From positions 1 through 64,000 of IMG/VR virus record IMGVR_UViG_3300030330_004274: 64,000 nt of DNA; one strand, given 5' to 3'. Position 1 is the first letter of the stretch. Each line of letters opens with the position of its first letter. The notes under the pieces were generated by a model that saw only the letters and a program-made list of their open reading frames with translations, had not been told where the DNA came from and did no database searches. The stretch is from a virus. Taxonomy: Duplodnaviria > Caudoviricetes. Shown piece by piece: positions 22,115 through 40,694 of the stretch. A program made the position numbers and the translations under genes.

Positions 22115-22169
22115 TGTTACAAACTGTTACAATTTAAGTATTGTAATCTTGTCAAATTCTTCTTATATT
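22115..22169 (+). promoter_or_regulatory. direct-repeat promoter, copy 1 (TGTTACA-N3-TGTTACA ... TATATT)
   Basis: Repeats at 22115/22125; TTGTAA-N17-TATATT. Confidence 0.75.
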
Positions 22170-22210
22170 ATAGTATGATAGAAAAGGAAAATATAACAAA
22201 AGGAGAAAAT

Positions 22211-22531
22211 ATGGTTTTAATGAATGGCAGTGATTATATAGAATTAGATAGTGTTGGTTCAACATTAACAAAAGATTTATTAGTATTTCCAACTGATTGT
22301 AGTGAGGCACCTGAAACAGCGAGTGAAGCTGAGTTTATGAGTGGTGTTCACATTTATGATTTAGATAGTGAATGGTTTAATAGTTTAAGTTCAAATGATT
22401 TAACAGATTTCTTTGAATTTATAGAACTTAATAGTGATGTGATAACTACAGTTTATAAGGCTTGGAAAGATGGTGTTTGGGGTGATTGGGAAACAGCAAA
22501 TAATTGTTATATGAATATGGAGGTTATATAA
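22211..22531 (+). CDS. hypothetical protein
   Basis: AGGAG RBS before ATG 22211; in-frame upstream ATG at 22175. Confidence 0.6.
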   Translation: MVLMNGSDYIELDSVGSTLTKDLLVFPTDCSEAPETASEAEFMSGVHIYDLDSEWFNSLSSNDLTDFFEFIELNSDVITTVYKAWKDGVWGDWETANNCYMNMEVI

Positions 22532-22695
22532 TGAGTGTTTATTCAAATATACCAGGTTCAGGTGGAAAACAAATTCCTATTAAAATGATTTGGGAAGACA
22601 ATAAAACTAAATGTAGTAAATGTGATAAAGTACCTTCAAATATAGAATACCACGGCAAACCATATTGCACTTGGTATTGTGCAAAGAAAAAGTAA
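22531..22695 (+). CDS. small zinc-finger protein
   Basis: GGAGG RBS; CSKC...CTWYC. Confidence 0.55.
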   Translation: MSVYSNIPGSGGKQIPIKMIWEDNKTKCSKCDKVPSNIEYHGKPYCTWYCAKKK

Positions 22696-22697
22696 GT

Positions 22698-22753
22698 TGT
22701 TACATATTGTTACAATTTAATTGTGGCAGGCTATCCATATTTTTTAGTATATT
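22698..22753 (+). promoter_or_regulatory. direct-repeat promoter, copy 2
   Basis: Repeats at 22698/22708; TATATT at 22748; no recognisable -35. Confidence 0.7.
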
Positions 22754-22788
22754 ATAATATGATTAGAAATGATAAAAAAGGAGATTTT

Positions 22789-23046
22789 ATGAACGACATC
22801 ACTCAAGGATACCAACCACTACCAAAAGATAAATGGGGTTGTGATATAACACCAACAGAAGAACCTGATAAAGATTGTATTTGTTGCTGGGGTGATGGAG
22901 AGGTTCAATGTAGTAGAGGTGATACTTATTATTATGATACTTGTTATTGTGTCTTGATTAAGTATTGGAAAAATATTGGTAATAAATTTATGGCTGATGG
23001 TTGTGAAAAATTATTGGCTAATGTAATTAGATTAAAAACACTTTAA
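22789..23046 (+). CDS. Cys-rich hypothetical protein
   Basis: AAGGAG RBS; CICC...CYC. Confidence 0.55.
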   Translation: MNDITQGYQPLPKDKWGCDITPTEEPDKDCICCWGDGEVQCSRGDTYYYDTCYCVLIKYWKNIGNKFMADGCEKLLANVIRLKTL

Positions 23047-23056
23047 AGGAGATTTT

Positions 23057-23182
23057 ATGGAATATATTTACGGAGTTCATTGTGGTGATTCAGATTGTTA
23101 CGCTTGTGGAACACAACGATACAATTGTGATGAGTTAAATAAATTAGATGATTTAGAGGATGGCAATGGCGATAATAACTAA
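23057..23182 (+). CDS. small Cys-rich protein (41 aa, absent from the ORF track)
   Basis: AAGGAG RBS; MEYIYGVHCGDSDCYACG. Confidence 0.5.
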   Translation: MEYIYGVHCGDSDCYACGTQRYNCDELNKLDDLEDGNGDNN

Positions 23183-23381
23183 AACAGAAAAGAAACAAGT
23201 TATAGATTTAACAGGTCCTCAAGGTAATGCATTTTACCTATTGGGTTTGGCTAGTAAGTTATGTAAACAATTAGATTTAGATGAAGAGTTAGTGTTATAT
23301 GATATGAGAATGGGTGGTTATGAACATTTAATCACAACATTTGATGATTATTTTGGTAATGTAATTGATTTGGAGAGATAA
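23166..23381 (+). CDS. conserved phage hypothetical protein
   Basis: IDLTGPQGNAFYLLG motif familiar from myovirus proteins. Confidence 0.65.
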   Translation: MAIITKTEKKQVIDLTGPQGNAFYLLGLASKLCKQLDLDEELVLYDMRMGGYEHLITTFDDYFGNVIDLER

Positions 23382-23851
23382 TGCATAATAGATTTTACAG
23401 AAAACCTAAACCAGAAACTATGAAGAAGAATCGAGAGTTCTATGCAGAAACATTTGAGAAAGAAATCAAATGGTTAAAAGAGAATATTGGTACTCTTAAT
23501 CAACATAAAAATAAATTTTTAATTGAGATGTATTCTATATTAGTTACAGGTAGTAGGAAAGTAACACCAAAAATGGCAACTGCAATACAGAGTGGTATTA
23601 TGAAATGTAATCAAAATCCAAACTACAATGAGAGTTTGAGACAAGAAGCAAATGCAAAGATAAGACCTATGTTAGAAAAAATTGCTATGGTAGAAAGATT
23701 GGCAGAACAAAAAGGTGATAGGGCAATAGATTTTGTAAGAAATGTAAAAGAATATGTTAAGAACAATTATAGGATGACCAAGAAACAAATGGAAAGTCTT
23801 AACAAAGTATATAAGAGAGTATCGGAGGATTTATTTGATGACAAAGGGTGA
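23381..23851 (+). CDS. hypothetical helical protein
   Basis: TAATG overlap; two similar F..........T.K..... helical units. Confidence 0.6.
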   Translation: MHNRFYRKPKPETMKKNREFYAETFEKEIKWLKENIGTLNQHKNKFLIEMYSILVTGSRKVTPKMATAIQSGIMKCNQNPNYNESLRQEANAKIRPMLEKIAMVERLAEQKGDRAIDFVRNVKEYVKNNYRMTKKQMESLNKVYKRVSEDLFDDKG

Positions 23852-23891
23852 TTTAAAATGGATAGAAAATTGGAAACCAAAAGGAGTAAGT

Positions 23892-24176
23892 ATGAATACA
23901 ACAAAAAAAGTAGCAGCTAAAAAAGTTGTTAAGAAGAAACCTGCAAAACGAGCATATCGTAAAGATAGTATAGTAGGTAAGTTATTACAATTAAAATATA
24001 GTATTAATGATATGTACCGAAATGGTGGACCTGGTGTAGATTTAGAACAAACTCGAGCAGATAAAGGTTATGTTATGAATTTGATAGATGGTGTTAGAAA
24101 ATTCGGTTGGAAAAAATTATCTCGTGAAGATGGTTTAATGTGTAATTCGTTATGGAGGAGATATGAAACCAAGTAA
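23892..24176 (+). CDS. hypothetical protein
   Basis: AAGGAG RBS before ATG 23892. Confidence 0.6.
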   Translation: MNTTKKVAAKKVVKKKPAKRAYRKDSIVGKLLQLKYSINDMYRNGGPGVDLEQTRADKGYVMNLIDGVRKFGWKKLSREDGLMCNSLWRRYETK

Positions 24177-24408
24177 AAAGAAAACAGCTAAAAGAAAATT
24201 TGATAAAGCTAAATGGGACATGATATTCGGTAAGTTAAAGAAACTTGGAACAGCTATTGAAATGTATTATGGTTCAAGTATGGATATTGATAATGTAGAT
24301 TATAGATGGGTTGATGATAGGATTGAATATTACGAATCAGGAGAAAGATTGTTAACCAAAGAAGAAATGATACAAGCAAATGAATTATGGGGTGTATATG
24401 GAGTGTAG
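24163..24408 (+). CDS. hypothetical protein (likely paralogue of the upstream gene)
   Basis: GGAGG RBS; shared C-terminal motif. Confidence 0.6.
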   Translation: MKPSKKKTAKRKFDKAKWDMIFGKLKKLGTAIEMYYGSSMDIDNVDYRWVDDRIEYYESGERLLTKEEMIQANELWGVYGV

Positions 24409-24716
24409 TGGGATATACTGATAACTTAAAAGGATTTCGTAGAAGATGTATGATTAAGAAACTTGATATTCTTATGAGACAGATTGAGGATGGTATAGAG
24501 TATTGTTATGATGAGGCTATGTTTGAAGAATCTCCAGATTTAAGAGCAGATATAGAAAACGCTGAATATTATAAGATAAAAATAGAAGAATTAGAAAATC
24601 AGTACAGTATAATATGGAGAATTAGGATACAATTAAGTAAAGGTATTAGAACATCCAAGACAGATTTAGATTATGTTAATCAAGTACATAGAGAGATGGC
24701 ATCAGGCATTTATTAA
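24408..24716 (+). CDS. hypothetical protein
   Basis: In-frame GTG overlapping the upstream stop; start uncertain (alternative ATG 24450). Confidence 0.5.
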   Translation: MGYTDNLKGFRRRCMIKKLDILMRQIEDGIEYCYDEAMFEESPDLRADIENAEYYKIKIEELENQYSIIWRIRIQLSKGIRTSKTDLDYVNQVHREMASGIY

Positions 24717-24922
24717 TGACCAAAATAATAAATTTAAAGACAGGTGAAGTAAGAAAAATTGAAAAACCAAAACCAAGAGAGTGTGAGGTATGTGGTATTG
24801 AGGTGTATGAAGATGAGGGTGGTTTGGTAGGAAATATAGGTAAGTTACCAGTTGGATTTTGTAATGTATGTACAACTGGTATAGTTGCAATGTTAATTGA
24901 AAGACAGAATAAGGAAAGATAA
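24716..24922 (+). CDS. small zinc-finger protein
   Basis: CEVC...CNVC. Confidence 0.55.
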   Translation: MTKIINLKTGEVRKIEKPKPRECEVCGIEVYEDEGGLVGNIGKLPVGFCNVCTTGIVAMLIERQNKER

Positions 24923-24923
24923 T

Positions 24924-25403
24924 ATGAATGAATATGGATTTATAACTTATGTTAATGGTAAGGAAACAAAAAATGATATAGTAAAATTTTTAAGAGATGA
25001 ATATTATACGGTGTTAAAGCCTGGTGTGCATGGAGTTGGGGTATTTGCAATAAAAGATATTCCTGCTGGAGTTGACCCTTTTGCGATATTCAAACATCCG
25101 TTGAGTAGAGATGGTCACAAGTGGTTTCAGGCAGTTTATAAAAGAGATGAGTTAAAGGGTGTTCATCCTAATGTCATTAACTACCACGCAACAAGAGTGT
25201 TTCATCCAAAAGATGAAGTGGTGGTTACAATCTGTAATGAGATGTATAAGTTACAATATTTAAATCATTCAGAGAGCAATAATTTAGACATAGATAAATC
25301 AACACTATCTGGTCTTGTAACTAACAGAGAAATCAAAGAGGGTGAAGAACTACTTCAAAATTATCACCACTTTGAACATTGGGAGTCATTGATAGATGAA
25401 TAA
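24924..25403 (+). CDS. SET-domain protein
   Basis: HGVGVFAIKDIPAG, YLNHS..N, REIKEGEELLQNY. Confidence 0.8.
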   Translation: MNEYGFITYVNGKETKNDIVKFLRDEYYTVLKPGVHGVGVFAIKDIPAGVDPFAIFKHPLSRDGHKWFQAVYKRDELKGVHPNVINYHATRVFHPKDEVVVTICNEMYKLQYLNHSESNNLDIDKSTLSGLVTNREIKEGEELLQNYHHFEHWESLIDE

Positions 25404-25549
25404 AGAACAACAAGAGGCAATAATAGGGGCTGCATGGTTAAACTTATTGATAGGAATATATAATATATACTTGTGGAGTATTGGTGGTAGTATATTTTGG
25501 AATTTAATAATCGGTATATTGAATATCGGAGTATGGGTATTTTTTAGAA

Positions 25550-25750
25550 ATGGGAAAGAAGAGTAAAAAAAAGACTAAAAGAAAAACTTGGCAGGAAAAA
25601 ATGGATTATCTTAATGATAAATCTTTACATATAAAAAGAGTAAGTAGAGATGTATTCAAAGATGCAGATATTGGTATGCGTAGACACAAAGATAAAACAA
25701 AATACAGTAGAAAGAAAAAACATAAAAAGAGGTTAGATAAAGATGGATAA
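25550..25750 (+). CDS. small basic hypothetical protein
   Basis: Lys/Arg-rich, HKDKTKYSRKKKHK. Confidence 0.5.
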   Translation: MGKKSKKKTKRKTWQEKMDYLNDKSLHIKRVSRDVFKDADIGMRRHKDKTKYSRKKKHKKRLDKDG

Positions 25751-25937
25751 AAATCAGTATAAAGAGATAGTAGGTGAATTAATGATAAAAGCAGGTAGAT
25801 TAGAAAAAATTTTAGAGATAATAAAATCAGAACCTAATGACCAAAGGTTAGGCAGTAAGTTAAGACAATTATCTTGGAGTTATGATGAAGAAGAAAATCA
25901 TAATCAAATGAACTTATTCGGAGAAGGTGATTACTAA
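25743..25937 (+). CDS. hypothetical protein
   Basis: PNDQRLGSKLR motif; overlapping operon ORF. Confidence 0.55.
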   Translation: MDKNQYKEIVGELMIKAGRLEKILEIIKSEPNDQRLGSKLRQLSWSYDEEENHNQMNLFGEGDY

Positions 25938-26136
25938 AAAATTAGACCTGCATGGAATAAGACACGAAGAGGTAGGTAGGTTAGTAGAAAACTTCGTATT
26001 GTTGAATGAACCGCCTTTAGATATAGTTACAGGTAACTCACAGAGAATGCAGGAAATAGTGATTAATGTATTGGTTACACACGATATTGGTTATGAGAGA
26101 TGGGGTAACGGATGCATCAAGATATTAAAGTGGTAA
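25927..26136 (+). CDS. stand-alone Smr-domain-like protein
   Basis: LDLHG...IVTGNS...GCIKI. Confidence 0.65.
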   Translation: MITKKLDLHGIRHEEVGRLVENFVLLNEPPLDIVTGNSQRMQEIVINVLVTHDIGYERWGNGCIKILKW

Positions 26137-26172
26137 GGAAATTTTTTTGGGGAGTTGATATATACATATATT

Positions 26173-26227
26173 TGTTACATATTGTTACAATTTAATTGTA
26201 GTAATAATTGCAGAATATTCGTAGATT
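26173..26227 (+). promoter_or_regulatory. direct-repeat promoter, copy 3
   Basis: Repeats at 26173/26183; TAGATT at 26222. Confidence 0.7.
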
Positions 26228-26256
26228 ATAGTATGATAAAAGGAGAAATAAATAAT

Positions 26257-26388
26257 ATGGATAATTTATTAGAACAATTAAAACAAGAGGGTATATTGGA
26301 TTTAATATCCCAACTTGGAGAATTAACCGATGAAGAGTTAGAGGCATTGGTTGAAGCAAATAAGAGTGGTCAAATGGGGGTTGCGTAA
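26257..26388 (+). CDS. small acidic hypothetical protein
   Basis: AAGGAG RBS; in-frame upstream ATG at 26233. Confidence 0.5.
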   Translation: MDNLLEQLKQEGILDLISQLGELTDEELEALVEANKSGQMGVA

Positions 26389-26522
26389 TATGGAAGGATT
26401 AGTGGATGGCGTTGCCCAAGTGGGTATCACGATATTTTCAATAGTTATGGGTATGTTGATAGTCAATTGGTTGGATAGAAATGTATTTAGTAACCACAAA
26501 AAATTTAATAAGGAGAATGAAA

Positions 26523-26945
26523 ATGATTAATGGAATTAAACCAACAATGGCGAAAACCACCGAGTTACGCATTAAACCTACTACTTTTAGTGATGCGATG
26601 GATGTGTTTTGTAAAAAATTAGAGGAGAATTGTAAACCTTATGTAGATAAATTTAATCATATGGATTCGGTTACATTTCGTGCGGATGGTGGTACGAAGT
26701 ATATAAAGGTTAAATCATTTCAAGTAAATATTGAAACAGATTACGAAACAGGTGTGAAAACTCTTGTGGGTGGTGATAAAGGTTCAATTCATTGTTTCGT
26801 AGAAAAAACGACGGGTAATATATTCAAACCTGCAGGTTGGAAATCACCTTATACAAAAGGTAATAATGCCATACGAGGAAACATATATGATTCGTCTACA
26901 TTTGAAAAAACAGATATGCATGGAGGATGGTTATATGCTAGATAG
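26523..26945 (+). CDS. conserved phage hypothetical protein
   Basis: KYIKV...SIHCFVEKTTGNIFKPAGWKSP motif familiar from T4-like phages. Confidence 0.65.
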   Translation: MINGIKPTMAKTTELRIKPTTFSDAMDVFCKKLEENCKPYVDKFNHMDSVTFRADGGTKYIKVKSFQVNIETDYETGVKTLVGGDKGSIHCFVEKTTGNIFKPAGWKSPYTKGNNAIRGNIYDSSTFEKTDMHGGWLYAR

Positions 26946-27096
26946 TAATAATATATTGATTTATAGTTTAGTAACAATGGGTGGATTGTTTGGTATAATG
27001 TTATCATTTTATTTATTGTTATGTTGGATTCAATGGGTTGCGGATGTGATAGATGAGAAGAGATGGCGGGATTGGAGGTATTGGTTCAATGGTTAA
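26935..27096 (+). CDS. small membrane protein
   Basis: GGAGG RBS; one hydrophobic segment. Confidence 0.45.
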   Translation: MLDSNNILIYSLVTMGGLFGIMLSFYLLLCWIQWVADVIDEKRWRDWRYWFNG

Positions 27097-27244
27097 TTGG
27101 GGTATGTTGTTGATAATGATAGGTACTTTGTTGGTATGGTGGAGTATCTTCAGTAATGGATTTTTCACTACATTGATATGGTTGGTAGTGATTGGATGTA
27201 TATTGGGTATTATAATTAAAACAAAGGAGAATACAAGAGTATGA
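27089..27244 (+). CDS. small membrane protein
   Basis: GGAGG RBS; two hydrophobic segments. Confidence 0.45.
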   Translation: MVNWGMLLIMIGTLLVWWSIFSNGFFTTLIWLVVIGCILGIIIKTKENTRV

Positions 27245-27447
27245 ATATAATAGAAATAATGAATAAAATAAAGTCAATCAAAGGTGATTATCAAAACAAT
27301 ATGATAACAGCAGATGAGATGTGTGAACACTTGGAAGACCTTATCTATGATGTACAAGGTAATGATGAGTATAGTGGGTTTGGGACTTCATTGGAAGATG
27401 ATGGGTTTTACGATAACATGCCTGACTTTACACAATTGAAGGTATGA
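27241..27447 (+). CDS. hypothetical protein
   Basis: AAGGAG RBS, ATGA overlap. Confidence 0.55.
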   Translation: MNIIEIMNKIKSIKGDYQNNMITADEMCEHLEDLIYDVQGNDEYSGFGTSLEDDGFYDNMPDFTQLKV

Positions 27448-27719
27448 TGATGGTATTCAATTCATTAACAAATTTTTTGAGCAATAAATACAATCTATGG
27501 GGATTAATCATTTTATCCAATTTACTGATAGGATACATTATAGGACAGTACCTGACTGTTGGCCAATTATGGTTAGTATTCATACTTGTATTTGTGAACA
27601 ACTTCTGTATGTTGACCTATGGAATGGCACAAGGTATGTTGATGTTAAGTATGACACAAAAAGCAATGAAGGAATGGTTGGATAAAATGGAAAGACAGAA
27701 CAAAAATGATACAAAGTAG
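27444..27719 (+). CDS. membrane protein
   Basis: Two hydrophobic segments; ATGA overlap. Confidence 0.5.
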   Translation: MMMVFNSLTNFLSNKYNLWGLIILSNLLIGYIIGQYLTVGQLWLVFILVFVNNFCMLTYGMAQGMLMLSMTQKAMKEWLDKMERQNKNDTK

Positions 27720-27880
27720 TGTTGATACACTATCTATGGTTGTTAGTGTCTATTTGTGGGGAAGAATGGTGTAAAACACCATATTACAATGTATTTTAAG
27801 TATTAAATTCATAGTATAATATAGAGAGAATTATATACAGCACATACATATCTCGCAAATAATTTTTTTTGAGAAAAAAC

Positions 27881-27910
27881 TTGACTTGAATGGGCAAAAA
27901 GCCTTATATT
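27881..27910 (+). promoter_or_regulatory. sigma70-type promoter TTGACT-N18-TATATT
   Basis: Matches the repeated promoter class; lies upstream of the non-coding region. Confidence 0.7.
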
Positions 27911-27952
27911 CATAGTATGTTATTTGAAATAATCGGAGTTTAGCGGGGCAAT

Positions 27953-28008
27953 TGTTACAAATTGTTACATTTATTTTCTTGGATTGTATTGGCTTTTCTT
28001 CGTATATT
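27953..28008 (+). promoter_or_regulatory. direct-repeat promoter, copy 4
   Basis: Repeats at 27953/27963; TATATT at 28003. Confidence 0.7.
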
Positions 28009-28012
28009 GTAG

Positions 28013-28509
28013 TATCATCATAAGGATGGTAAAAGTTTTTTGATATAATTCCTCGCGGGAATGGGGTTCAGTATGAAAATGACTGAATAATGACTTTCCA
28101 AAAAGGTTATAAGGTGCGTGAGTAAGGTCTGTGGTGGACGGTACAAGGTACATAACTGTATGAGTATCACGAGGGTAACTCCTCTCGAAAGCGGCTGAAG
28201 TAAATAAAGAAAAATACATTGTATTTTTTGGTTACATGCATAAGGGTATACAATAATCCCTTTCACACCAGAAGAACCCCAAAATATTATTTGAGCGTGC
28301 TCCAGAAGAGTAAAAAGGAGTATCAGGAGCGTGCTCCAGAAAAAATGAGATGAACCTGCATACTTGGGTTGTAGTAATACTTCCTCAGTCCCTCCAGGTT
28401 CTCTCCTCACAATTAAATAGGTTATATTCTATATTGGTGTTATCCTTTCTACAATATAGAACAAAGGGCAACTCAATGGTTTAACTCCTTTTCCACAGTT
28501 GCCCTTTTT
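28013..28509 (+). ncRNA. candidate ~500-nt structured non-coding RNA
   Basis: Two upstream promoters, no + strand ORF in the track, raised GC, many hairpins and long-range stems, ends in a stem plus U-tract. Confidence 0.6.
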
Positions 28510-28563
28510 GTTACAAACTGTTACAATTTTCCTGTTGTAATATTGATAGAAAGTCCGTAAGTT
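28509..28563 (+). promoter_or_regulatory. direct-repeat promoter, copy 5
   Basis: Repeats at 28509/28519; TTGTAA-N17-TAAGTT. Confidence 0.7.
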
Positions 28564-28589
28564 ATAGTATAATTAAAAGGAGTTAATTT

Positions 28590-29756
28590 ATGAATCAACC
28601 GTTAAATGTAGTAAAAATTGAAAAATCAGGCAATAGGTTCAACGCCTGGGATACTAATGGTGTCAAGAGGACATCTGAAATAACAACTGTTACTCGTAGG
28701 AAAGCGTTCGAGGGAGATTATCTCTTGGGTGAGTTCGTTATGAAGAATGGTAAACACTACTGGAAAAAAGTGGATAATATTGAATCCGCTCCAGTTAATG
28801 ATACAATCTCTTCGGTAGAAGTCCCTTCTGACCACGAAGAGGTATTGAATTTTATACACAGTTCTTATTCCCTTAAACCAAGAATGCTGATGATGTCCGA
28901 GTTAAAATGGAAGTATTTGGTTAGGTCTGGTGTTAGAGGAAAGAACATTATGATGACAGGTCCTGCTGGTTGTGGTAAAACTATGGCAGCAAAATCGCTA
29001 GTAAATTCTTTAGATAGGCCTGATTATTATTTTAACTTGGGTGCAACTCAAGACCCAAGGTCAACTCTTATCGGTAATACCCACTTTGACAGTGCTAAAG
29101 GTACTTATTTCTCACAATCTTTATTTGTTGAGGCAATACAAACACCTAATGCGGTTATCCTCTTAGATGAGTTATCCAGAGCACATCCAGATGCATGGAA
29201 TATCTTGATGACTGTGTTGGATTATGGTCAAAGATACTTGAGGTTGGATGAATCTAATGGTAGTGATACTATTAAGGTTGCGGATGGTGTAACATTTGTA
29301 GCCACTGCGAACATCGGTAATGAGTATACTTCTACAAGAGTTATGGATAAAGCCCTGATGGACAGGTTCACTATTGTAGAGATGGATGTATTATCAGAGG
29401 ATGAGGAAAGTTCTCTATTGAATATGATGTTCCCTAATGTAGATAGTGTGGTGTTAGGTAATGTGGCTAAGATAGCAACTCTCACAAGAACAGAATCTAA
29501 CTCCGATACTGCGAGAATAACAAGTGGTATCAGTACAAGAACTACTGTTGAGCTGTGTGGGTTACTATATGATGGGTTCTCGTTAGAAGAGGCTGCTGAG
29601 GTTAGTATCTATCCACAGTATGATGCGACTGGTGGTGTTGACTCTGAAAGAACCTTTGTGAAACAGATTGTACAAAAGTTTGTTGATGATGGCTCAAGCG
29701 ATGACCTCTTCAATGAGGAAGAGATGGCGGAGGCCGAAGAGGATACTAACTACTAA
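28590..29756 (+). CDS. MoxR/CobS/CbbQ-type AAA+ ATPase
   Basis: Walker A GPAGCGKT, Walker B ILLDE, ATAN, DKALMDRF, ISTR. Confidence 0.85.
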   Translation: MNQPLNVVKIEKSGNRFNAWDTNGVKRTSEITTVTRRKAFEGDYLLGEFVMKNGKHYWKKVDNIESAPVNDTISSVEVPSDHEEVLNFIHSSYSLKPRMLMMSELKWKYLVRSGVRGKNIMMTGPAGCGKTMAAKSLVNSLDRPDYYFNLGATQDPRSTLIGNTHFDSAKGTYFSQSLFVEAIQTPNAVILLDELSRAHPDAWNILMTVLDYGQRYLRLDESNGSDTIKVADGVTFVATANIGNEYTSTRVMDKALMDRFTIVEMDVLSEDEESSLLNMMFPNVDSVVLGNVAKIATLTRTESNSDTARITSGISTRTTVELCGLLYDGFSLEEAAEVSIYPQYDATGGVDSERTFVKQIVQKFVDDGSSDDLFNEEEMAEAEEDTNY

Positions 29757-29784
29757 TAGTTAGTAAGTGTGTGGTTAACTCCTG

Positions 29785-32620: not shown

Positions 32621-33101
32621 ACACAAACGAACCTTTGGTAGAAAAGAACAAGATGAATCAAAGGTATTTTTAGAAGAACATAGAGTACCACCCAAACCTA
32701 CATCTTATTATACTAAAGACAAAGGTAAGTGTAGATATTGTGGACATTGGATTTATACTGAAGAAGGTGAATTGAATCAGAGGAAGAGTTGGCATACAAG
32801 ATGTGCAGATGAGTATATGTTTATCTATCATTCTAATGAAACACGAAAGTATATTTGGCAAAGAGATAATGGTGAATGTGCTCATTGTCACGAATTGTTT
32901 CCTTGGCGTTCTCGTAGGAATAGTGAGAAGTGGGATGTAGACCACATCAGACCATTATGGGAACAGAAGGGTAAAACCTTTGATGAAATTGATTTAACAT
33001 ATTGGGAAGAAGAGAATTTACAGACACTATGTTATAGTTGTCATAAGAAGAAATCAGCTAAAGAGGCAACTCGGAGAGCTAAATTAAATAATAAAAAATA
33101 A
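32595..33101 (+). CDS. HNH endonuclease
   Basis: RDNGECAHC...VDHIRP...NLQTLCYSCH. Confidence 0.8.
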   Translation: MPLSRWSRRHKRTFGRKEQDESKVFLEEHRVPPKPTSYYTKDKGKCRYCGHWIYTEEGELNQRKSWHTRCADEYMFIYHSNETRKYIWQRDNGECAHCHELFPWRSRRNSEKWDVDHIRPLWEQKGKTFDEIDLTYWEEENLQTLCYSCHKKKSAKEATRRAKLNNKK

Positions 33102-33124
33102 AACATAAACAGGAGATTAAAACA

Positions 33125-34729
33125 ATGGGTAAATTTTTTGAAGATAGTTTAGAAGGATTTTCAGAAGTTCGAGATAGACGTCAGGCAATGATGAAACCAA
33201 ACTTTCCTCTTATATTAAGAGAGTTGTTACAGAATGTGCCGTGGAGTGCAAATTTAACTAACCTTAATTTAACGATGACAAAAGTTGATGGTACGGATGA
33301 AAGAGAAGTTCTATTAGAAATGTTAGATAATGATTATGGATGTACATATCAAACTTTTAGAGCAAGTACATTAGCTTTCGATACAGAGAGTGGATTTGGT
33401 GTTAAGAAAGTAGGAGCCAATAAGTTTGGACAGGGAATACCAAATATCGTACCTAAATCATCTACTGGTCAATTAGAACTTCAAATGAAAAAAGATGGTA
33501 AGGCTTGGAGAGTTATTATGAGTTCTGATGCCAATAGGGGTATTAGTGTAGAGGAAAATATTAAGGATTCCAAGATAGAAGGTGAGAGTGGTTTTTATTT
33601 TAGGATACCATTAAAAATAACTAATAAATCTTGGAAGATAAGTTCACCAGAAGCTATGGTACAAGAGTTCTATAATATTATCAAACAAGATTGTCATTTT
33701 AATTTAAGTAGAGTAAAAGTTAATATTAAGTTAGTAGGATTTGATATGGCATTTAATAAATCGTTTAAGGATTTAGATTGTATTCAAAAAAGAAACGATG
33801 TATGGGTAACAGATGATTTATCTACTACTACAGTTAATGCACCTAACATTATTGACAAACCACAAATCTATGATTATCAAGGTGGTAAAATAAGAATCTT
33901 GAAAATGGAATTAGGTAAGAGGGTTGGTAAACAAGAAGCTGAAAAGTATCTTGGTTTGAATGAAGAGGAATATGAAAAACTTTATTTCTTAGCAGAACAA
34001 GCTGATAGACCAGTTGCTCTATTCAGATGTTCAAGGACAGGTTTGTTATATCCTACAATCATCCCATTAAGAAATGGTGCTACTGGTCAGATAAATCTTA
34101 ATCATTGTACAGTTATTTGTACCATTGATATTCAAGATGAGTGTTGGGGTGTAGACCAAACTAAAGAAGAAATAATGACACCAACAATGATGGATTATCT
34201 AAAAGGTAAAATACAATATATAGCAGAAGGTATATATCCATCTGAATCTTATAAAGAATATGCATTACAATCTTTCTTATTTGATACTTATACAGAGGGA
34301 GAGGATTTTAATGCTGAAAGATTAAGACACGATAGTGGAATAGGTTTTACAGAAAGTATGACACTTGAAGAGCGTTTAAAACATATCTTTAAAGAAGATT
34401 CAAATGGTGCAAGTAGATATGATTTTTCTTTATTAGATGAAGATAAAGTAAAGATGCCAACAGAAGTTAAACCTAAATTCTTTAAAAAGAATGAGTACTT
34501 ACAAGTATTAAAATACTATATGCAAGAGAAATCTGAAAAAGTTACTATGATAGGTTTAGATGTGGATAATGAAAAAATTTCTCAACTTCACAATCAAGTG
34601 GATAGATGGAAAAAAGGTAAGATGAGTAAACTTGCTAACTGGCAATATTTAGATGCTAGGAAATATGGATATAGTAAACTTGTTGAGAGAGAATACATAA
34701 ATAAAGTAAGAGATGCAATGAATGTTTAA
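33125..34729 (+). CDS. GHKL-type ATPase fused to a PD-(D/E)xK nuclease-like domain
   Basis: ILRELLQN, DNDYG, GANKFGQG; C-terminal RYDF...TEVK...QVLKY. Confidence 0.55.
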   Translation: MGKFFEDSLEGFSEVRDRRQAMMKPNFPLILRELLQNVPWSANLTNLNLTMTKVDGTDEREVLLEMLDNDYGCTYQTFRASTLAFDTESGFGVKKVGANKFGQGIPNIVPKSSTGQLELQMKKDGKAWRVIMSSDANRGISVEENIKDSKIEGESGFYFRIPLKITNKSWKISSPEAMVQEFYNIIKQDCHFNLSRVKVNIKLVGFDMAFNKSFKDLDCIQKRNDVWVTDDLSTTTVNAPNIIDKPQIYDYQGGKIRILKMELGKRVGKQEAEKYLGLNEEEYEKLYFLAEQADRPVALFRCSRTGLLYPTIIPLRNGATGQINLNHCTVICTIDIQDECWGVDQTKEEIMTPTMMDYLKGKIQYIAEGIYPSESYKEYALQSFLFDTYTEGEDFNAERLRHDSGIGFTESMTLEERLKHIFKEDSNGASRYDFSLLDEDKVKMPTEVKPKFFKKNEYLQVLKYYMQEKSEKVTMIGLDVDNEKISQLHNQVDRWKKGKMSKLANWQYLDARKYGYSKLVEREYINKVRDAMNV

Positions 34730-35522
34730 AAGAAGAATGGATACTGGTTGGACATTTAAATCAGATACGATGTATAACAAATATAATGTATATCGTGATG
34801 GTGATATGTTTGAAGTAAATCCTAACTGGCAAAGTATTGCACAGATAAAATATGTTGGTAAACGAAATATACCGATAGTTGTAATTGATGATTTTTTCAT
34901 TAATGTAGATAAGGTGAGGGAACTTGCCTTATCTGCACACTATAGTAATCACACTAACAAAATGAATGCATCACCTGGTATTAGATGTGTGTTTGATATT
35001 CATTGGGATATTGGAAAGATTGCTCAGGCATATTTTAACAATTGGTATTTAGAGGAACTTAATATTAAGTGTCCTTTTAATTGGCCTAATAAACATAATA
35101 TGTTTACAATCATAGATACATCAGAACCTATGGTAACACCACAATGTTATCCTCATATAGATATATCGTGGCAAGAAGGACAACGATTAGGAGATGATGA
35201 TACACAACATACTGCCAGTATTGTATATTTAAATACAGATGATGAATGTAAAGGTGGGACTGGAATATACAAGTGTAAAACTCTTGATAGTCATTTATGT
35301 ACAACCAAAGATAAATTTTTAGAATGGGATGCAGTAAAAAAACCTAAAAGAGTAAACAACATTAATTATGAAGATAATGATATGTTTGAATTAGTCTATG
35401 AAGCAAAAATGAAATACAATAGATTCGTGATGTATCCTACTTGTTTGTTTCATCATCCTATTTATAAACCAGATTATTTTACAGGTGATAACTGTCGTAT
35501 AACATTGGGTTCGTTTGTGTAA
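34722..35522 (+). CDS. 2OG-Fe(II) oxygenase (DUF6445-like)
   Basis: IVVIDDFF, PHID, IVYLN, GGTG, YNRFVMY...FH, RIT. Confidence 0.75.
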   Translation: MFKRRMDTGWTFKSDTMYNKYNVYRDGDMFEVNPNWQSIAQIKYVGKRNIPIVVIDDFFINVDKVRELALSAHYSNHTNKMNASPGIRCVFDIHWDIGKIAQAYFNNWYLEELNIKCPFNWPNKHNMFTIIDTSEPMVTPQCYPHIDISWQEGQRLGDDDTQHTASIVYLNTDDECKGGTGIYKCKTLDSHLCTTKDKFLEWDAVKKPKRVNNINYEDNDMFELVYEAKMKYNRFVMYPTCLFHHPIYKPDYFTGDNCRITLGSFV

Positions 35523-35731
35523 TGAAGAATCCATTTACAGAACATCCACATTCAGTAGGGGAAACATATTTTGAACATATGAAGAAAGCATTAAAGTATT
35601 CTTTCGTATTGTATTATGCATTCATAGTTGTTATGATACATGCATTCTATCCATTCTTGTTTACCACGACTGGAAGTGATACGATAGCAAAATTACACAA
35701 AGAATTAAAGGGAAGAAAAAATGAAAGATAA
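35522..35731 (+). CDS. DUF6356-like small membrane protein
   Basis: FTEHPHSVGETYFEHM...HAFYPFLF. Confidence 0.7.
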   Translation: MKNPFTEHPHSVGETYFEHMKKALKYSFVLYYAFIVVMIHAFYPFLFTTTGSDTIAKLHKELKGRKNER

Positions 35732-35851
35732 TTTTGAATGGCAAGGTAAAAGAAAAGACCAAGTAGAGTTTTCATACAAGATGGTAGCATTTAGTGTTGT
35801 TGCTAGTATTGTATTGATAACCATATGGGGTATAGGGAGATTAATATTGGG

Positions 35852-36217
35852 ATGAAGTTTTTAACAAGAAAATTAATTACACCAGCAGATTTAAATCCAA
35901 GAGGAACTCTGCATGGTGGACAACTATTGAAGTGGATTGATGAGGAAGGTGGTATTCACGCAGCATTAGAATTACAGACAGGATTAATTGTAACAAAGTT
36001 TATATCAGAGATTGATTTTAAATTTCCTGTCTTGGAAGGTGATGTGGTGGAGATAGGAATGCAAACATTATCAATCGGTAAAACATCTTGTACACTCGCG
36101 TGTGATGTAAGAAGTCTTCAGGCAGATAGAGTTGTATGTTCAATAGATAAGATGGTTTACATCAGAGTGAACAAGTATGGAATGCCGAAGAAGCATGGTA
36201 GTATGAGTGGTGAATGA
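35852..36217 (+). CDS. hotdog-fold acyl-CoA thioesterase
   Basis: DLNPRGTLHGGQLLKWIDE, F..PV..GD, GKTS. Confidence 0.8.
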   Translation: MKFLTRKLITPADLNPRGTLHGGQLLKWIDEEGGIHAALELQTGLIVTKFISEIDFKFPVLEGDVVEIGMQTLSIGKTSCTLACDVRSLQADRVVCSIDKMVYIRVNKYGMPKKHGSMSGE

Positions 36218-36567
36218 AATTCAAAAAAGGAAATAGGTGGAAAGGTAGTAAAGGTGAACTACGATATAAGACCTGGCGTAAGATGGTGTTTGAACTTAAC
36301 AAAAGGAAAGTTGGTTTATCTAAACACTATGTATGTGTAAAGTGTAACAAGAAAAGAAAGACAACCAAAGTACTACACGCACATCACATATATAGTTGGA
36401 ATAAGTTTCCTAAAAAAAGATACGATAGATATAATGGTGTCGTTCTATGTATTAAATGTCATAATGCCTTTCACAGAAAATACAAGTTTGAAGCTCTTGA
36501 CAAACCCAACTTACTGCTCGAATACTTAAACAATAATCGTATCGTAAAAGAATATATACAAGAGTAA
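36214..36567 (+). CDS. HNH endonuclease
   Basis: CVKC...LHAHHI...NGVVLCIKCHNAFH. Confidence 0.75.
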   Translation: MKFKKGNRWKGSKGELRYKTWRKMVFELNKRKVGLSKHYVCVKCNKKRKTTKVLHAHHIYSWNKFPKKRYDRYNGVVLCIKCHNAFHRKYKFEALDKPNLLLEYLNNNRIVKEYIQE

Positions 36568-36617
36568 AAATTTTTTTCTTTTCCGCTTTTTAAATTATAT
36601 TTATAGTAAAGAACGAA

Positions 36618-37232
36618 GTGAGGATTATTATGAAGAAAGATAAATACAAATTAATAAAAGAAGAATCAATTAAAAATATAATCGAGTTTCTCGATGAGGT
36701 ACAATTTGATGCTGCTAAAGAGGGTAGTACTGAAGATATGCATAAAGTTAATTTTTGTACTTGGGCTATCAATGAATTACTAAATGGATATGATGCATTT
36801 CTTAGCAGAAAAAAATATGGTAAAGGTGATAATAAAAAATCTCAATCAAAATCAAGAGACCAATATGTAGAAGAAACATTTATGGATTGGAATCTACCTG
36901 ATATGTCTGATGAAGAGTATGAAAAACTTGTAGACCAATTTGATGCATTCTTACGAAGTTGGGAAAAAGAATATAATAAAAAGAAAAAGAAAGAAGGTAA
37001 GGTAGATGATGTGATTCAAGAAAGACCTTACAAACCTCACATAGAAGATGTAATGGATTATTGTTCATTAGAAGAAGTTATAGAATTTCTTAAAGATGAC
37101 CCTGAACTTACAGATAATGAAAGATTTGAATTGTATTATGATGAGAGAGAAAGAAGAAAACCTAAAGAGAAAGGTTTATCATATGAGGAATTGTTTAAAG
37201 GAACTGGAGTTACACCACCTAAGAAGAAATAA
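36618..37232 (+). CDS. hypothetical protein
   Basis: Long ORF preceded by an ATATTTATA motif. Confidence 0.6.
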   Translation: MRIIMKKDKYKLIKEESIKNIIEFLDEVQFDAAKEGSTEDMHKVNFCTWAINELLNGYDAFLSRKKYGKGDNKKSQSKSRDQYVEETFMDWNLPDMSDEEYEKLVDQFDAFLRSWEKEYNKKKKKEGKVDDVIQERPYKPHIEDVMDYCSLEEVIEFLKDDPELTDNERFELYYDERERRKPKEKGLSYEELFKGTGVTPPKKK

Positions 37233-38328
37233 ATAATTGTGCTTCTTTATGTTTAATATAATCACCAATATCTTTACCCTTTAATCCTTGAGCGATTGCA
37301 TCCTTTGCTGTAACAGATAATTTATGATTCCACAACTTTAATATATTTTTATCAGAGTGTATCTCTGTCCATTGTTTAACTTGTGATATAGTTAACTTAC
37401 TGTTGTCTTGTAGTTTCTTAAATGATGGTAAATCAAGTATTACTTCTTTCCAATCCATCATATGTATTAACAACCATATACTATTAACCTCTTGATTAGT
37501 ATAAGATAAAGATTTTAATTTACTTCTAACTTTATTCTTACCATTGGTATGTAACATATATGCTATTTGTAAGATATAATCATTCGTTGTTAATCTATAC
37601 ATCAGAGTACTTAATCCTGGAAATATCTGTTTGAACATTCCTAACTTTTGTACCATCTTTAAATAGTTTAGAACTGATTTAGCTTTTGTAATTCCTTTTA
37701 TAAACTCATCTCTTATTCTTTCAGAACTAACTTTAGATATATCAGCATTTCTTTTCAAGGACCCCCAGGTTTCTTTTGTCATCTTTCCTCCCACACTACC
37801 AGCAAATCTTACGGCTCGTAATCTACGCAGTGGGTCTTCATCAAACCTTCTATCTGCAGAACCAACAGTTCTGATTTTCTTTTTCTTTAAATCAGCAATT
37901 CCTCCTACTAAATCTACAATTTGTTTCTTACCTATATCGTAGAACAGAGCATTGATGGTTAAGTCCCTACGCTTAACATCACCCTTGATGTCTGTGAAAT
38001 CAACTGCATCAGGTCGTCTTCCCTTACCTATATCTTTTCTGAATGTAGCAATCTCATGTCCTCCCACAACCACAACACCAAATTGTTTTCCAACCTCTAC
38101 TGATTTGAATCCACCTTGTTTGGCTATGTTCAATACTTCATCAGGTTTAGCATCTGTCGTTAAATCAAAATCCTTTGGTGAGTTACCAAGTATTGCATCA
38201 CGAACAGCACCACCAACTACATAGAGTTGTTTACCATTCTTCTTAAATAATTTGTGGAGTTTTTTTATATCGGATGGGATGTTAAGTTTGAGTTTAGCTT
38301 CTGCTAGTAAAGTAGATAAATGTATCAT
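37219..38328 (-). CDS. cca: CCA-adding tRNA nucleotidyltransferase (class II)
   Basis: VGGAVRD, DFD, VGKQFGV, RRDLTINA and EDPLR templating motif. Confidence 0.8.
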   Translation of the reverse strand: MIHLSTLLAEAKLKLNIPSDIKKLHKLFKKNGKQLYVVGGAVRDAILGNSPKDFDLTTDAKPDEVLNIAKQGGFKSVEVGKQFGVVVVGGHEIATFRKDIGKGRRPDAVDFTDIKGDVKRRDLTINALFYDIGKKQIVDLVGGIADLKKKKIRTVGSADRRFDEDPLRRLRAVRFAGSVGGKMTKETWGSLKRNADISKVSSERIRDEFIKGITKAKSVLNYLKMVQKLGMFKQIFPGLSTLMYRLTTNDYILQIAYMLHTNGKNKVRSKLKSLSYTNQEVNSIWLLIHMMDWKEVILDLPSFKKLQDNSKLTISQVKQWTEIHSDKNILKLWNHKLSVTAKDAIAQGLKGKDIGDYIKHKEAQLFISS

Positions 38329-39224
38329 ACCTTACCACCTCTTTGTTTTACAAACTTCTTAACACCATCAGCAAAGCCTGTAAAGATTTTACCTTTAACA
38401 AATGGTTTTAAATCTTTCTTTATATCCTTTATTGCTTTCTCTGTTGTTTCAAAATCATTAGGGTCACCAATTACATCTATAACGATATAGGCATCTTTAA
38501 CCTTTACATCATAAACCAATAATTCATTGTAACCATATGAACTCATAAATTTTGTTATTGTTGGATTATTAATATTTTTCATAAATGCATTTTTCATTTT
38601 CTTTTTATTTTTTAGTAAGAACTTATTACTTGCATCTATATATTTTTTAATCAAATTAGCTTTTTGTTTACCTGTATATTGTGGAAATCTTTTCTTCACA
38701 TCAGGTGGGTCTGAAGGCACTACTAACAAACTTGTTTTGTATTTGTATAATATATCTTCTAATTTTTTATCTATCTTATATAAACCTTTTCTATAAGTTA
38801 TACCTGCACCAGGTCCTTGTAAATTTTTCATACCAAGTATCTTACCAAGAGTGCTTGGAGCTAACCATCTTCTCCCAGCCTCATCAGGTACAGAACCTAA
38901 ATCTTCAGTCCCAGCAACCAATACTTTACCTACTACTTCTAAAACTACACCACCACCAGTTTGAACACCACCACCTTTTAATAAATGACCCTCAGTATCG
39001 TGAGTGTATGTTGATATTGATTTTTGTGTGCCAATGACATTGGGTAATTGTTTTTTAATTGAATACCAATTTAGATTATGAAATGTGGTTATAGGTGTAT
39101 CACCCATAACTTGTTTCATCACCTTTGGTGTCATTGGTATATAATCGTGACCAACCCACTCTAATGATTTTTGAGAATGAGCCACACCAGAAAATTCTAA
39201 TAATAAATCTTTTAGTTTAATCAT
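38325..39224 (-). CDS. hypothetical protein, probable internal virion protein
   Basis: MIKLKDLLLE N-terminus shared with its neighbour. Confidence 0.6.
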   Translation of the reverse strand: MIKLKDLLLEFSGVAHSQKSLEWVGHDYIPMTPKVMKQVMGDTPITTFHNLNWYSIKKQLPNVIGTQKSISTYTHDTEGHLLKGGGVQTGGGVVLEVVGKVLVAGTEDLGSVPDEAGRRWLAPSTLGKILGMKNLQGPGAGITYRKGLYKIDKKLEDILYKYKTSLLVVPSDPPDVKKRFPQYTGKQKANLIKKYIDASNKFLLKNKKKMKNAFMKNINNPTITKFMSSYGYNELLVYDVKVKDAYIVIDVIGDPNDFETTEKAIKDIKKDLKPFVKGKIFTGFADGVKKFVKQRGGKV

Positions 39225-39631
39225 TTCTTTTTACCTGCACAATGTGCCTTTTGACTAAATCCTTTTGGGTTATTACAATCAATAGACTTTTTATATTTTT
39301 TACTCCAACCTTCATTTTTCTTTTTAGTAATCTTTTTCATTTTATTTATATATGCTCTATACACGGCTGCCTGAGATGTTTTACCCATCTCTCTTGCTCT
39401 TTGTTCCATAGCAACTGCAGCTTGTATTTTGTGAGCGTGTGATTTACCACTACCTTTTATTTTATTAACTGATGCTTTTGCATCTTTAACAGTAGCAAAT
39501 TTTAATCCGTGTATAGTTCCTTTTGGATTCTCATCAGTATATAAATCTGAATGAGATGATGAACCACGATGTTGACCTTTCTTACGAGGTTTTCTTGGTT
39601 CTTCAGATAATAAATCTTTTAGTTTAATCAT
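39221..39631 (-). CDS. basic hypothetical protein, probable virion protein
   Basis: MIKLKDLLSE; DLYTDENPKGTIHGL; WSKKYKKSIDCNNPKGFSQKAHC. Confidence 0.6.
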   Translation of the reverse strand: MIKLKDLLSEEPRKPRKKGQHRGSSSHSDLYTDENPKGTIHGLKFATVKDAKASVNKIKGSGKSHAHKIQAAVAMEQRAREMGKTSQAAVYRAYINKMKKITKKKNEGWSKKYKKSIDCNNPKGFSQKAHCAGKKK

Positions 39632-39936
39632 TGCTTTCCCTCCACATCATATAACCAATACTCAGCAGTTAGTTCATTCCCTATGTTTATTGGTCTAATG
39701 GTTCTTAACATAATATAATCACCATCGTTATAAAATTCACAATTAGGTACATCTGCGTGATTTACAAATGCCCCAATTGGAGTTCTAATATATCCATTTT
39801 CAAATCTATCATCTTTAACATGCGAAATACCAAGTTGTGTATTTGCAGTTAAATTTTCTGCTGCAAATAATCCTAATCCTTCAATGTAGGATTTTTTAAT
39901 TGTTACTTCTTTTGGTAATGGTCTATACATAGTCAT
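39628..39936 (-). CDS. SET-domain protein
   Basis: GLGLFA, FVNHADVPNC, RPINIGNELTAEY. Confidence 0.8.
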   Translation of the reverse strand: MTMYRPLPKEVTIKKSYIEGLGLFAAENLTANTQLGISHVKDDRFENGYIRTPIGAFVNHADVPNCEFYNDGDYIMLRTIRPINIGNELTAEYWLYDVEGKQ

Positions 39937-39937
39937 T

Positions 39938-39946
39938 TATAAATAT
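39938..39946 (-). promoter_or_regulatory. putative late promoter ATATTTATA
   Basis: The same 9-mer lies on the sense strand upstream of genes at 36597, 46211, 48003, 56752 and 59785. Confidence 0.55.
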
Positions 39947-39977
39947 CAAATTTTGATAGATTATATAAATAAAATAT

Positions 39978-40032
39978 TGTTACAACTTGTTACAATTTAT
40001 TGTTTGGTATTTTGTTAAAATATACCGATATT
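39978..40032 (+). promoter_or_regulatory. direct-repeat promoter, copy 6
   Basis: Repeats at 39978/39988; TTGGTA-N17-GATATT. Confidence 0.65.
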
Positions 40033-40055
40033 AATATATGGATAAAGGAGTTAAT

Positions 40056-40505
40056 ATGAATAAGATTGTTATTTTTGATTTAGATGGTACACTTGCTCTT
40101 ATAGATAAACGAAGAGATTTAGCTACCAAAGATAATGGAAAATTTGATTGGGATGTTTTCTTTGACCCAGCGAATATAGATTTAGATTTACCAAACCAAC
40201 CTGTTATTGATATGGCTAATATGTTGAGTAAACAAGGATATACGATTATGATTCTATCAGGTCGTTCTGATGTTACTCATCAAGCCACACGAGATTGGTT
40301 AAACAAGCATGGTGTTTGGTTTGATACTCTTACAATGAGAACTAAACATTATCATTACACAAAAGATTCAGTTCTAAAACAAATGTGGTTAGATTCCATT
40401 GGTGTTGATAATGTTGCTATGGTTTTTGATGATAGACAACAAGTTGTTGATATGTGGCGTTCTAACGGACTCACTTGTTTTCAAGTTGCAGATGGAGATT
40501 TTTAA
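40056..40505 (+). CDS. stand-alone polynucleotide 3'-phosphatase (HAD domain of T4 PseT/PNKP type)
   Basis: DLDGT, SGR, KD...K, FDDRQQVVDMWR..GLTCFQVADGDF. Confidence 0.8.
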   Translation: MNKIVIFDLDGTLALIDKRRDLATKDNGKFDWDVFFDPANIDLDLPNQPVIDMANMLSKQGYTIMILSGRSDVTHQATRDWLNKHGVWFDTLTMRTKHYHYTKDSVLKQMWLDSIGVDNVAMVFDDRQQVVDMWRSNGLTCFQVADGDF

Positions 40506-40631
40506 TTGGGGAGTTGCGACCTCAATATGAATGGGAACTCACAACGGACAAGGCTTAGGTTGGGTAGGGGAAACACAAGTTTCCATAGAATCCCATTGGG
40601 TAGCGAGTGGTTGACCAGAGTTCCCATTTGT
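40505..40631 (+). ncRNA. candidate small structured RNA element
   Basis: 14-bp closing stem 40527-40540/40618-40631 with internal hairpin GGAAAC-ACAA-GTTTCC; GC-rich. Confidence 0.4.
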
Positions 40632-40639
40632 AACAATGT

Positions 40640-40694
40640 TGTTACATATTGTTACAATTTAATTATAGGATATAAGTTTAAATGTCCGTATATT
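40640..40694 (+). promoter_or_regulatory. direct-repeat promoter, copy 7
   Basis: Repeats at 40640/40650, an inverted TGTAACA at 40629, TATATT at 40689. Confidence 0.7.

Follow-up and report, generated by a model that had tools for sequence, protein, structure and literature searches.

The stretch of DNA analysed here, hereafter the window, is the first 64 kb of IMG/VR virus record IMGVR_UViG_3300030330_004274, a 168,793-bp genome with a GC content of 31% and an estimated completeness of 95%. The genome is that of an uncultured marine T4-like phage of approximately 169 kb, with a gp23-type capsid protein sharing 52% identity with its counterpart in Microcystis phage Mel-JY01, 50% with that in Flavobacterium phage immuto and 35% with that in Rhodothermus phage RM378. 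Within an early-type region of the window, seven putative promoters each carry an exact direct repeat, TGTTACA-N3-TGTTACA, hereafter the box. Promoters bearing the box are termed class B, and those of a second family, A-rich and built as TTGACT-N18-TATATT, are termed class A (Table 1). The class-B set stands in front of three operons of small proteins, a non-coding stretch of approximately 500 nt, a MoxR/CobS-like ATPase, a PNKP-type phosphatase and a vWA/CobT-like protein. Starting from the left, promoter 1 lies directly after tRNA-Pro. Promoter 4 follows in tandem a class-A promoter (TTGACT at 27881–27886, TATATT at 27905–27910), and both face the non-coding stretch, which holds a manA-like match and ends in a terminator hairpin abutting box 5. 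Promoter 7 has an extra inverted heptamer, TGTAACA (40629–40635), 4 nt upstream of its box, giving three half-sites.

A scan of the whole genome finds the box seven times on the + strand, here the coding one, and not at all on the reverse strand; the reversed-pattern control gives none, and the mononucleotide chance expectation is 0.0016 per strand. All copies fall within 22–41 kb, co-oriented with the genes. There are no + strand copies with one or two mismatches, the background consisting of chance three-mismatch matches only, so the distribution is strictly bimodal. The seven repeats had been picked out in a first-pass annotation of the window; each proved exact, and scanning the full genome added no eighth site.

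When aligned, the seven regions have in common the two heptamers, a T preceding the first of them, an A/T-rich tract (ATTTAATT-like) behind the second and a conserved block, cgTATATTatAGTATgAt. The distance from the end of the box to a TAnnTT −10 is 32 bp at five sites and 33 bp at two, equivalent to the 39–40 bp from the start of the second repeat that the first-pass annotation gave. Its description of the −35 elements as weak or absent also stands, as the hexamers 17 bp upstream of the −10 match TTGACA poorly. Placing the start site 7 nt after the −10, the box would span −61 to −45, with the centre of the 18-mer at −51.5 to −52.5, and would abut the degenerate −35; a Shine–Dalgarno sequence and an ATG follow 17–35 nt after this inferred start.

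Table 1 Class-B promoters and related features. Positions are those of the window unless marked; starts are inferred; ORF, open reading frame; aa, amino acids.
Feature	Position	Strand	Box	Hexamer at −35 position	−10 hexamer	Genes behind and remarks
Class-B promoter 1	22115–22176	+	22115–22131	TTGTAA (22141–22146)	TATATT (22164–22169)	Inferred start ~22176; 106-aa ORF (22211–22531), 54-aa CxxC...CxxxC ORF (22531–22695)
Class-B promoter 2	22698–22760	+	22698–22714	GGCAGG (not recognisable as a −35)	TATATT (22748–22753)	85-aa Cys-rich ORF (22789–23046)
Class-B promoter 3	26173–26234	+	26173–26189	TAGTAA	TAGATT (26222–26227)	43-aa ORF (26257–26388), then DUF7717 protein (26523–26945)
Class-B promoter 4	27953–28015	+	27953–27969	TGGATT	TATATT (28003–28008)	Non-coding stretch of ~500 nt
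manA-like structured RNA	28060–28269	+				RF01745, 34.7 bits (gathering score 55.2), E 8.5e-6: sub-threshold
Class-B promoter 5	28509–28570	+	28509–28525	TTGTAA (28535–28540)	TAAGTT (28558–28563)	MoxR/CobS-like AAA+ ATPase (28590–29756)
Class-B promoter 6	39978–40039	+	39978–39994	TTGGTA	GATATT (40027–40032)	PNKP-type HAD phosphatase (40056–40505)
Class-B promoter 7	40629–40701	+	40640–40656	TAGGAT	TATATT (40689–40694)	706-aa vWA/CobT-like protein (40730–42850)
Class-A promoters, among others	18626, 27881, 31186, 45067, 48925; genome 85371, 165222

The class-A family, with approximately eight copies in the genome, is composed of an A-rich tract, GCG, TTGACT, an 18-nt spacer and TATATT, followed by (A/G)GTAT. 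The core TATATT-N3-4-(A/G)GTAT is common to both classes and, because it recurs in class-A promoters, the −10 assignment of class B is independent of the box. A generic promoter scan returned no more matches than shuffled sequence, and promoter and terminator scans are uninformative in DNA this AT-rich.

Using the ATPase gene as a query, we collected 80 related loci at 67–91% identity, and only the closest relatives among them carry the box. The orthologous ATPase promoter has it in 8 of the 80, whereas the others are mostly class A, reading AAAAAGTGAAAAAAAG-CTTGACT-17-TATATT; the box therefore replaces the A-rich upstream element and strong −35 of the relatives. Among whole records, perfect boxes number 6, 5 (with a further, single-mismatch copy) and 6 in three box-bearing relatives, and five large box-less relatives have no perfect box and one-mismatch counts equal to the control. 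No such regulon was found in Mel-JY01, immuto, P-SSM4, P-TIM40, P-HM2, Syn9 or HTVC008M, and the boxes AAGTTATGAACA and TGTTAATAA were not repeated in the relative loci examined. Over 44 distinct sites (four genomes plus seven partial relatives), the gap between the box and the −10 is 32–34 bp in 28 and 42–43 bp in 10, and the longer spacing class retains a full TTGAC −35. Two spacings approximately one helical turn apart are the expectation for an upstream activator that depends on the face of the helix. In one relative (G002) the box also occurs inverted at three sites, 11 nt ahead of ACGTTGTAG −35 elements. The box remains letter-perfect across phages whose proteins have diverged to 30–80% identity, for which a conserved cellular regulator is the easier explanation.

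All seven sites read GTTACA-N4-GTTACA exactly, that is, direct hexamers with a 10-bp period as in OmpR-subfamily sites. In Bordetella, the OmpR orthologue RisA has a GTTACA consensus in 391 of 430 peaks of chromatin immunoprecipitation sequencing (PMC11019879). In Acidithiobacillus caldus, the best of the OmpR boxes ahead of tetH reads GTTACAACTTGTTACATAAG (PMC9861516) and has a core that agrees in every letter with the phage site at 39978, to which the A. caldus box GTTACAACTTGTTACA is identical. The HLR1 site of cyanobacterial RpaB, (G/T)TTACA(T/A)(T/A)N2(G/T)TTACA(T/A)(T/A), has activating sites centred at approximately −51 (PMC6525291); its 8+2+8 pattern is found in all seven boxes, as the first-pass annotation had indicated, at an inferred centre of −51.5, and −35 elements are weak in both. 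Relative to the inferred start, the phage box thus occupies the place of OmpR-subfamily sites, upstream of or abutting the −35 and close to the activating peak of RpaB. The E. coli RstA box TACATNTNGTTACA, also proposed in that annotation, is present in three copies (22698, 26173 and 40640, with N3 = TAT), and the other four of the seven sites do not fit it. The phage sites resemble those of OmpR orthologues (the E. coli OmpR F and C boxes, RisA and Acidithiobacillus) in their GTTACA direct repeats, period and abutment of the −35, but they are letter-perfect, number seven per 169 kb and take the place of an A-rich element and a strong −35. HLR1 sites in cells are degenerate, with T as frequent as G at the first position, whereas the phage always has TG. 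The reading of the first-pass annotation thus stands at the level of the family; by itself the motif does not separate OmpR, RpaB and their kin.

Several other regulators were considered and set aside. The MotA box of T4-type middle promoters is TGCTTtA-like and lies at −30, differing from the present box, at −61 to −45, in both sequence and position. An UP element, bound by the polymerase alpha subunit's C-terminal domain (alpha-CTD), is A/T-rich at −40 to −60 with no invariant G or C, whereas each heptamer has an invariant G and C; it is class-A promoters and the box-less relatives that have an A-rich element instead. The motifs and usual positions of NtcA and CRP do not fit either, and the CenR motif (TGA-N8-TGA, PMC9275681) is a mismatch.

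The same box is present at cellular promoters. Scanning species genomes for the exact box gave at least 120 matches, and among those listed 17 belong to Cyanobacteriota, Melainabacteria included. The first-pass annotation had suggested looking for the box in candidate hosts. Among 401 sampled Alphaproteobacteria, 34 genomes together contain 39 exact boxes, as against 7 for the control (approximately fivefold). The box occurs twice, 2.2 kb apart, in a single-cell genome of marine origin that bears the title ‘OCS116 cluster bacterium AG-430-B22’. The alphaproteobacterial order of this single-amplified genome (SAG), hereafter the OCS116-SAG order, comprises 25 genomes of 0.9–1.6 Mb with five exact boxes and none for the control, and four of the five are upstream of one gene, encoding a giant RTX-repeat protein. 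All eight true orthologues of this protein, from eight species, have GTTACA-N4-GTTACA 122–173 nt before the start codon, four as perfect heptamer pairs and four reading TGTTACATTTGGTTACA, and TTGAC follows 17–19 nt after the box, the same architecture as the phage promoters with the box one turn further upstream. The N-terminal module of the RTX protein, MATIN..S.ADIIVPS..G.TYRGLGGDDTY, heads 1–11 different proteins per genome (loci L308–L337), of which only the giant RTX orthologue has the box.

A second conserved setting is the lpxC promoter. The inverted box followed by AAGCTTGATTTG lies directly upstream of lpxC in at least four alphaproteobacterial genomes with GC contents of 37–56%; the conserved element there reads TGTAACA-N3-TGTAACA-AA(G/A)C(T/A)(T/G)GATTTG (L343, L344, L346 and L369). 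The element also occurs in two loci at 62–68% GC (L356 and L359). It has the look of a regulator site that is deeply conserved, and we know of no description of it. In one alphaproteobacterial genome, a response-regulator gene follows 43 nt downstream of the box. Among NCBIfam models it scores best with OmpR (281 bits, followed by VirG at 225 and RpaB at 211), and its product shares 44% identity with the OmpR-like regulator found in the OCS116-SAG order. All 25 genomes of that order encode 2–6 OmpR-family regulators (Trans_reg_C), so the box stands at promoters of a lineage that has such regulators, and no phage DNA was found in the box-bearing bacterial loci. The boxes at RTX, lpxC and the OmpR-like gene indicate that a cellular regulator of exactly this specificity exists in Alphaproteobacteria and controls envelope and surface genes; an OmpR orthologue would be the obvious candidate.

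Translation signals bear on the host lineage. A Shine–Dalgarno sequence precedes 58% of first ATGs in this phage, against a background of 7%, and 34–54% in its relatives; elsewhere the figure is 3% in immuto, 24% in a Microcystis phage, 19% in Prochlorococcus phage P-HM2 and 41% in SAR11 phage HTVC008M. Bacteroidota mostly do without Shine–Dalgarno pairing, so a phage with a frequency of 0.58 is unlikely to have a flavobacterial host. That host was rejected on this contrast with immuto (0.58 versus 0.03) and on the HLR1 pattern, which is without enrichment in 101 Flavobacteriaceae. In immuto (MW353176.1) the signal is depleted at start codons, 0.03 versus 0.15 at internal ATGs, which sets it cleanly apart from the marine clade with the same capsid type. 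Picocyanobacteria are disfavoured as hosts as well, more weakly than Bacteroidota, because of the strong use of Shine–Dalgarno signals and the absence of psbA from the phage. PhoH and Hsp20, followed as host clues, gave no consistent taxon. A 3,027-bp contig with a GC content of 42% (L307, G382:C116), binned with a genome of the OCS116-SAG order, encodes a gp23 fragment 74% identical to residues 442–580 of this phage's capsid protein, and the ATPase marker found nothing in that order. We infer that the host is probably a marine proteobacterium, with Alphaproteobacteria favoured.

Taking the observations together, we consider it moderately probable, at about 0.6, that an OmpR-subfamily dimer (OmpR/RisA/RpaB type), supplied by the host, binds the seven boxes as tandem sites of high affinity and activates the phage promoters. 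Part of the early programme would then probably be switched on via a host envelope or osmolarity regulator. Two winged-helix domains would bind head to tail on GTTACA half-sites 10 bp apart, and the box-bearing promoters of the phage would form a second sigma-70-type class, one that depends on an activator. The regulator, most likely host-supplied, would sit at approximately −61 to −45, directly upstream of a degenerate −35, or in relatives one turn further, upstream of a complete −35. From there, a dimer of the host OmpR orthologue could recruit RNA polymerase where the −35 is too weak alone, as OmpR-family and other class-I activators do from an upstream box. In this way, the ATPase, its vWA partner, the PNKP phosphatase, the structured RNA and small early-region proteins would be tied to the state of a host two-component system. 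The first-pass annotation had proposed that a group of probably early genes and a non-coding RNA is wired to a host response regulator or to the phage's own activator, with RstA and RpaB as models. The wiring is supported, probably to a regulator of the host, by the OmpR/RpaB consensus, the upstream activating position, the weak −35 elements, the lack of an OmpR-type domain in the phage and the cellular boxes. The two regulators named are probably the wrong ones, RstA because it fits three of seven sites and RpaB because it needs a cyanobacterial host; an OmpR orthologue of a marine proteobacterium fits better.

Several points weigh on the other side. Sites that are perfect and never degenerate, with an invariant T before GTTACA, tend to go with a dedicated factor more than with a host regulon. 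Only one sub-clade has the box and sister phages do without, which the gain of a phage-encoded factor would also fit, and several clade-specific small ORFs exist that are candidate factors. In a presence and absence comparison (four box-bearing versus three box-less genomes; 11 box-bearing versus 69 box-less loci), the best correlate of the box is a DUF7717 subfamily, found at 7 of 11 and 1 of 69 loci, respectively. The OmpR-like gene of the OCS116-SAG order has no box of its own, and the physical link between the phage and that order, a single contig of approximately 3 kb, is a weak hint.

These points lead to the strongest competitor, an activator encoded by the phage itself, from an unrecognised protein family and functionally analogous to T4 MotA or P2 Ogr; we regard it as unlikely, though by no means negligible. 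Class B would then comprise delayed-early or middle promoters turned on by a class-A product, and the confinement of an always-perfect box to one sub-clade would be accounted for. T4 middle promoters (MotA box plus AsiA) and the late promoters of P2 and P4 (Ogr–delta) likewise combine a sigma-70 −10 and a poor −35 with an extra upstream box, but the MotA box differs as described above and the Ogr site is a dyad, TGT-N12-ACA, near −55. Candidates include the clade-specific small ORFs at 21544–21954, 22211–22531, 44179–44358 and 44807–45070. The 54-aa protein between boxes 1 and 2, zinc-ribbon-like with its CxxC...CxxxC motif and basic tail (AKKK), recalls small zinc-finger activators such as Ogr, but its ORF is missing from two box-bearing genomes, both incomplete. 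The DUF7717 protein of the type found here is encoded in a box-driven operon, yet the family is also present in four of five box-less genomes, and its versions among box-bearing phages fall into two subfamilies only 31–35% identical, although the box is identical; its AlphaFold model, with a predicted local distance difference test (pLDDT) score of 47, is unusable. Neither Trans_reg_C nor Sigma70_r2 was found in six frames of the phage, approximately 30 small early-region proteins gave no match to a DNA-binding family above threshold, no homologue of MotA, AsiA or Ogr was recognised among the early-region ORFs scanned for families, and the protein atlas and PHROGs returned only ‘unknown’ for a candidate factor. 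With the DUF7717 correlate weakened by three observations, nothing therefore points to a phage factor. Such a factor would, moreover, have to match OmpR/RpaB sites in consensus, period, flanks and position by chance, and an identical box is found at cellular promoters with no phage genes nearby.

Next to be weighed is the idea that the boxes are HLR1 sites for RpaB, with which a cyanophage would couple its genes to the light or redox state of its host, a reading we hold to be improbable. The GC content of 31% resembles that of high-light Prochlorococcus, and the nearest capsid relative, which is among the two closest cultured phages, has Microcystis as its host. Cyanobacteriota are strongly enriched for the HLR1 pattern: 225 of 251 genomes have it, with approximately 3,000 matches, and the reversed control gives, by our reading, approximately one tenth of that. 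Seven perfect HLR1 matches with an inferred centre equal to the activating peak (PMC6525291) would suit RpaB well, and the same paper, citing Riediger 2018, reports HLR1 motifs in cyanophage genomes. Against it stand the absence of psbA, the Shine–Dalgarno frequency of 0.58 (0.19 in P-HM2 and 0.24 in the Microcystis phage) and the lack of such a regulon in Mel-JY01, P-SSM4, P-TIM40, P-HM2 and Syn9; moreover, this box is just as much an OmpR site of Proteobacteria (PMC11019879, PMC9861516).

The boxes could also act negatively, the regulator repressing the phage promoters or being titrated from envelope genes by replicating phage DNA. The phage has seven perfect sites, each candidate host genome searched has one or two exact boxes, the number of phage sites would rise with genome replication, and the cellular targets, RTX and lpxC, are surface and envelope genes. 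The position upstream of weak −35 elements is, however, a signature of activation and not of occlusion, and the fixed, helically phased spacing to the −10 would be superfluous in a pure sink; we consider a negative or sink role, which is compatible with activation, highly improbable as the main function. A dual role, in a streamlined marine host with only few two-component systems, is an improbable further reading: perfect OmpR boxes would both drive the early-gene block and, on replication, soak up the OmpR orthologue of that host, turning RTX and lpxC off. Such a device would combine the hijack of a regulator with host shutoff, written in DNA alone. Finally, that the second heptamer is an extended −10 (TGnTACAAT), making the box a promoter and not a regulator site, is scarcely credible: TGTTACAAT stands at six of the seven sites and two readings of this kind score in the generic scan, but that scan does not exceed shuffles, relatives read TACAAA, TACACT or TACATA there without the critical final T, the first heptamer is left unexplained, and class-A promoters, with their canonical TTGACT at 18 bp, have the same TATATT core that lies downstream here.

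Activation by a host OmpR orthologue would have precedents, as host regulators of the OmpR/PhoB family are already known to act on phage promoters. The motif of one of them, CtrA, is TTAA-N7-TTAA and is unrelated to the box. In phages of Alphaproteobacteria, CtrA sites are embedded in phage promoters (PMC9437464), as proposed here for OmpR; some of these phages encode their own CtrA, whereas the present phage has no Trans_reg_C domain. In cyanophages, PhoB binds direct repeats (Pho boxes) at promoters of T4-like marine phages (P-SSM2 pstS; S-PM2d, PMC10976474) and links phage genes to host physiology, similar to the present proposal but with a different regulator and motif. Binding and regulation are experimental in the PhoB case, with scattered weak boxes, whereas here a uniform promoter class is known from sequence. 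In the limited literature searched, we found no account of a promoter class built on OmpR-type GTTACA boxes in marine T4-like phages. What is added here is the cellular counterpart at RTX, lpxC and ompR-like promoters, the comparison with class A and the host argument from translation signals.

If activation by the host regulator is correct, a whole promoter class would be built on a host two-component regulator and infection would respond to the envelope or osmotic state of the host. How transcription is controlled in the abundant marine T4-like phages without MotA and AsiA is poorly understood, and the identical box kept at RTX and lpxC promoters of small-genome marine Alphaproteobacteria would give a handle on the host. 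A by-product is a predicted OmpR regulon in Alphaproteobacteria that includes lpxC and the giant RTX protein, and the promoter parts are short and portable.

Some minor observations concern other repeated motifs and genes of the phage. The three bases before the class-A −35 are lineage-specific, GCG in this phage (G000), ACG in G001, GAC in G359, CAC in G363 and AGC in G360, and each triplet is repeated 5–9 times per genome. The element ATATTTATATA, presumed to be a late-promoter motif, has 17 copies on the + strand of this phage and tops the repeated 11-mers in relatives too. Prochlorococcus phage P-SSM4 (AY940168.2) has three overlapping one-mismatch HLR1-like sites at 168569–168626, the sole such cluster among five classic marine myophages searched. 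The DUF7717 protein has an invariant N terminus, MINGIKP, and approximately 976 close homologues in marine metagenomes. The phage also encodes two SET-domain proteins, at 24924–25403 (+ strand) and 39628–39936 (− strand), with matches to Pfam PF00856 at E values of 7e-7 and 7e-9.

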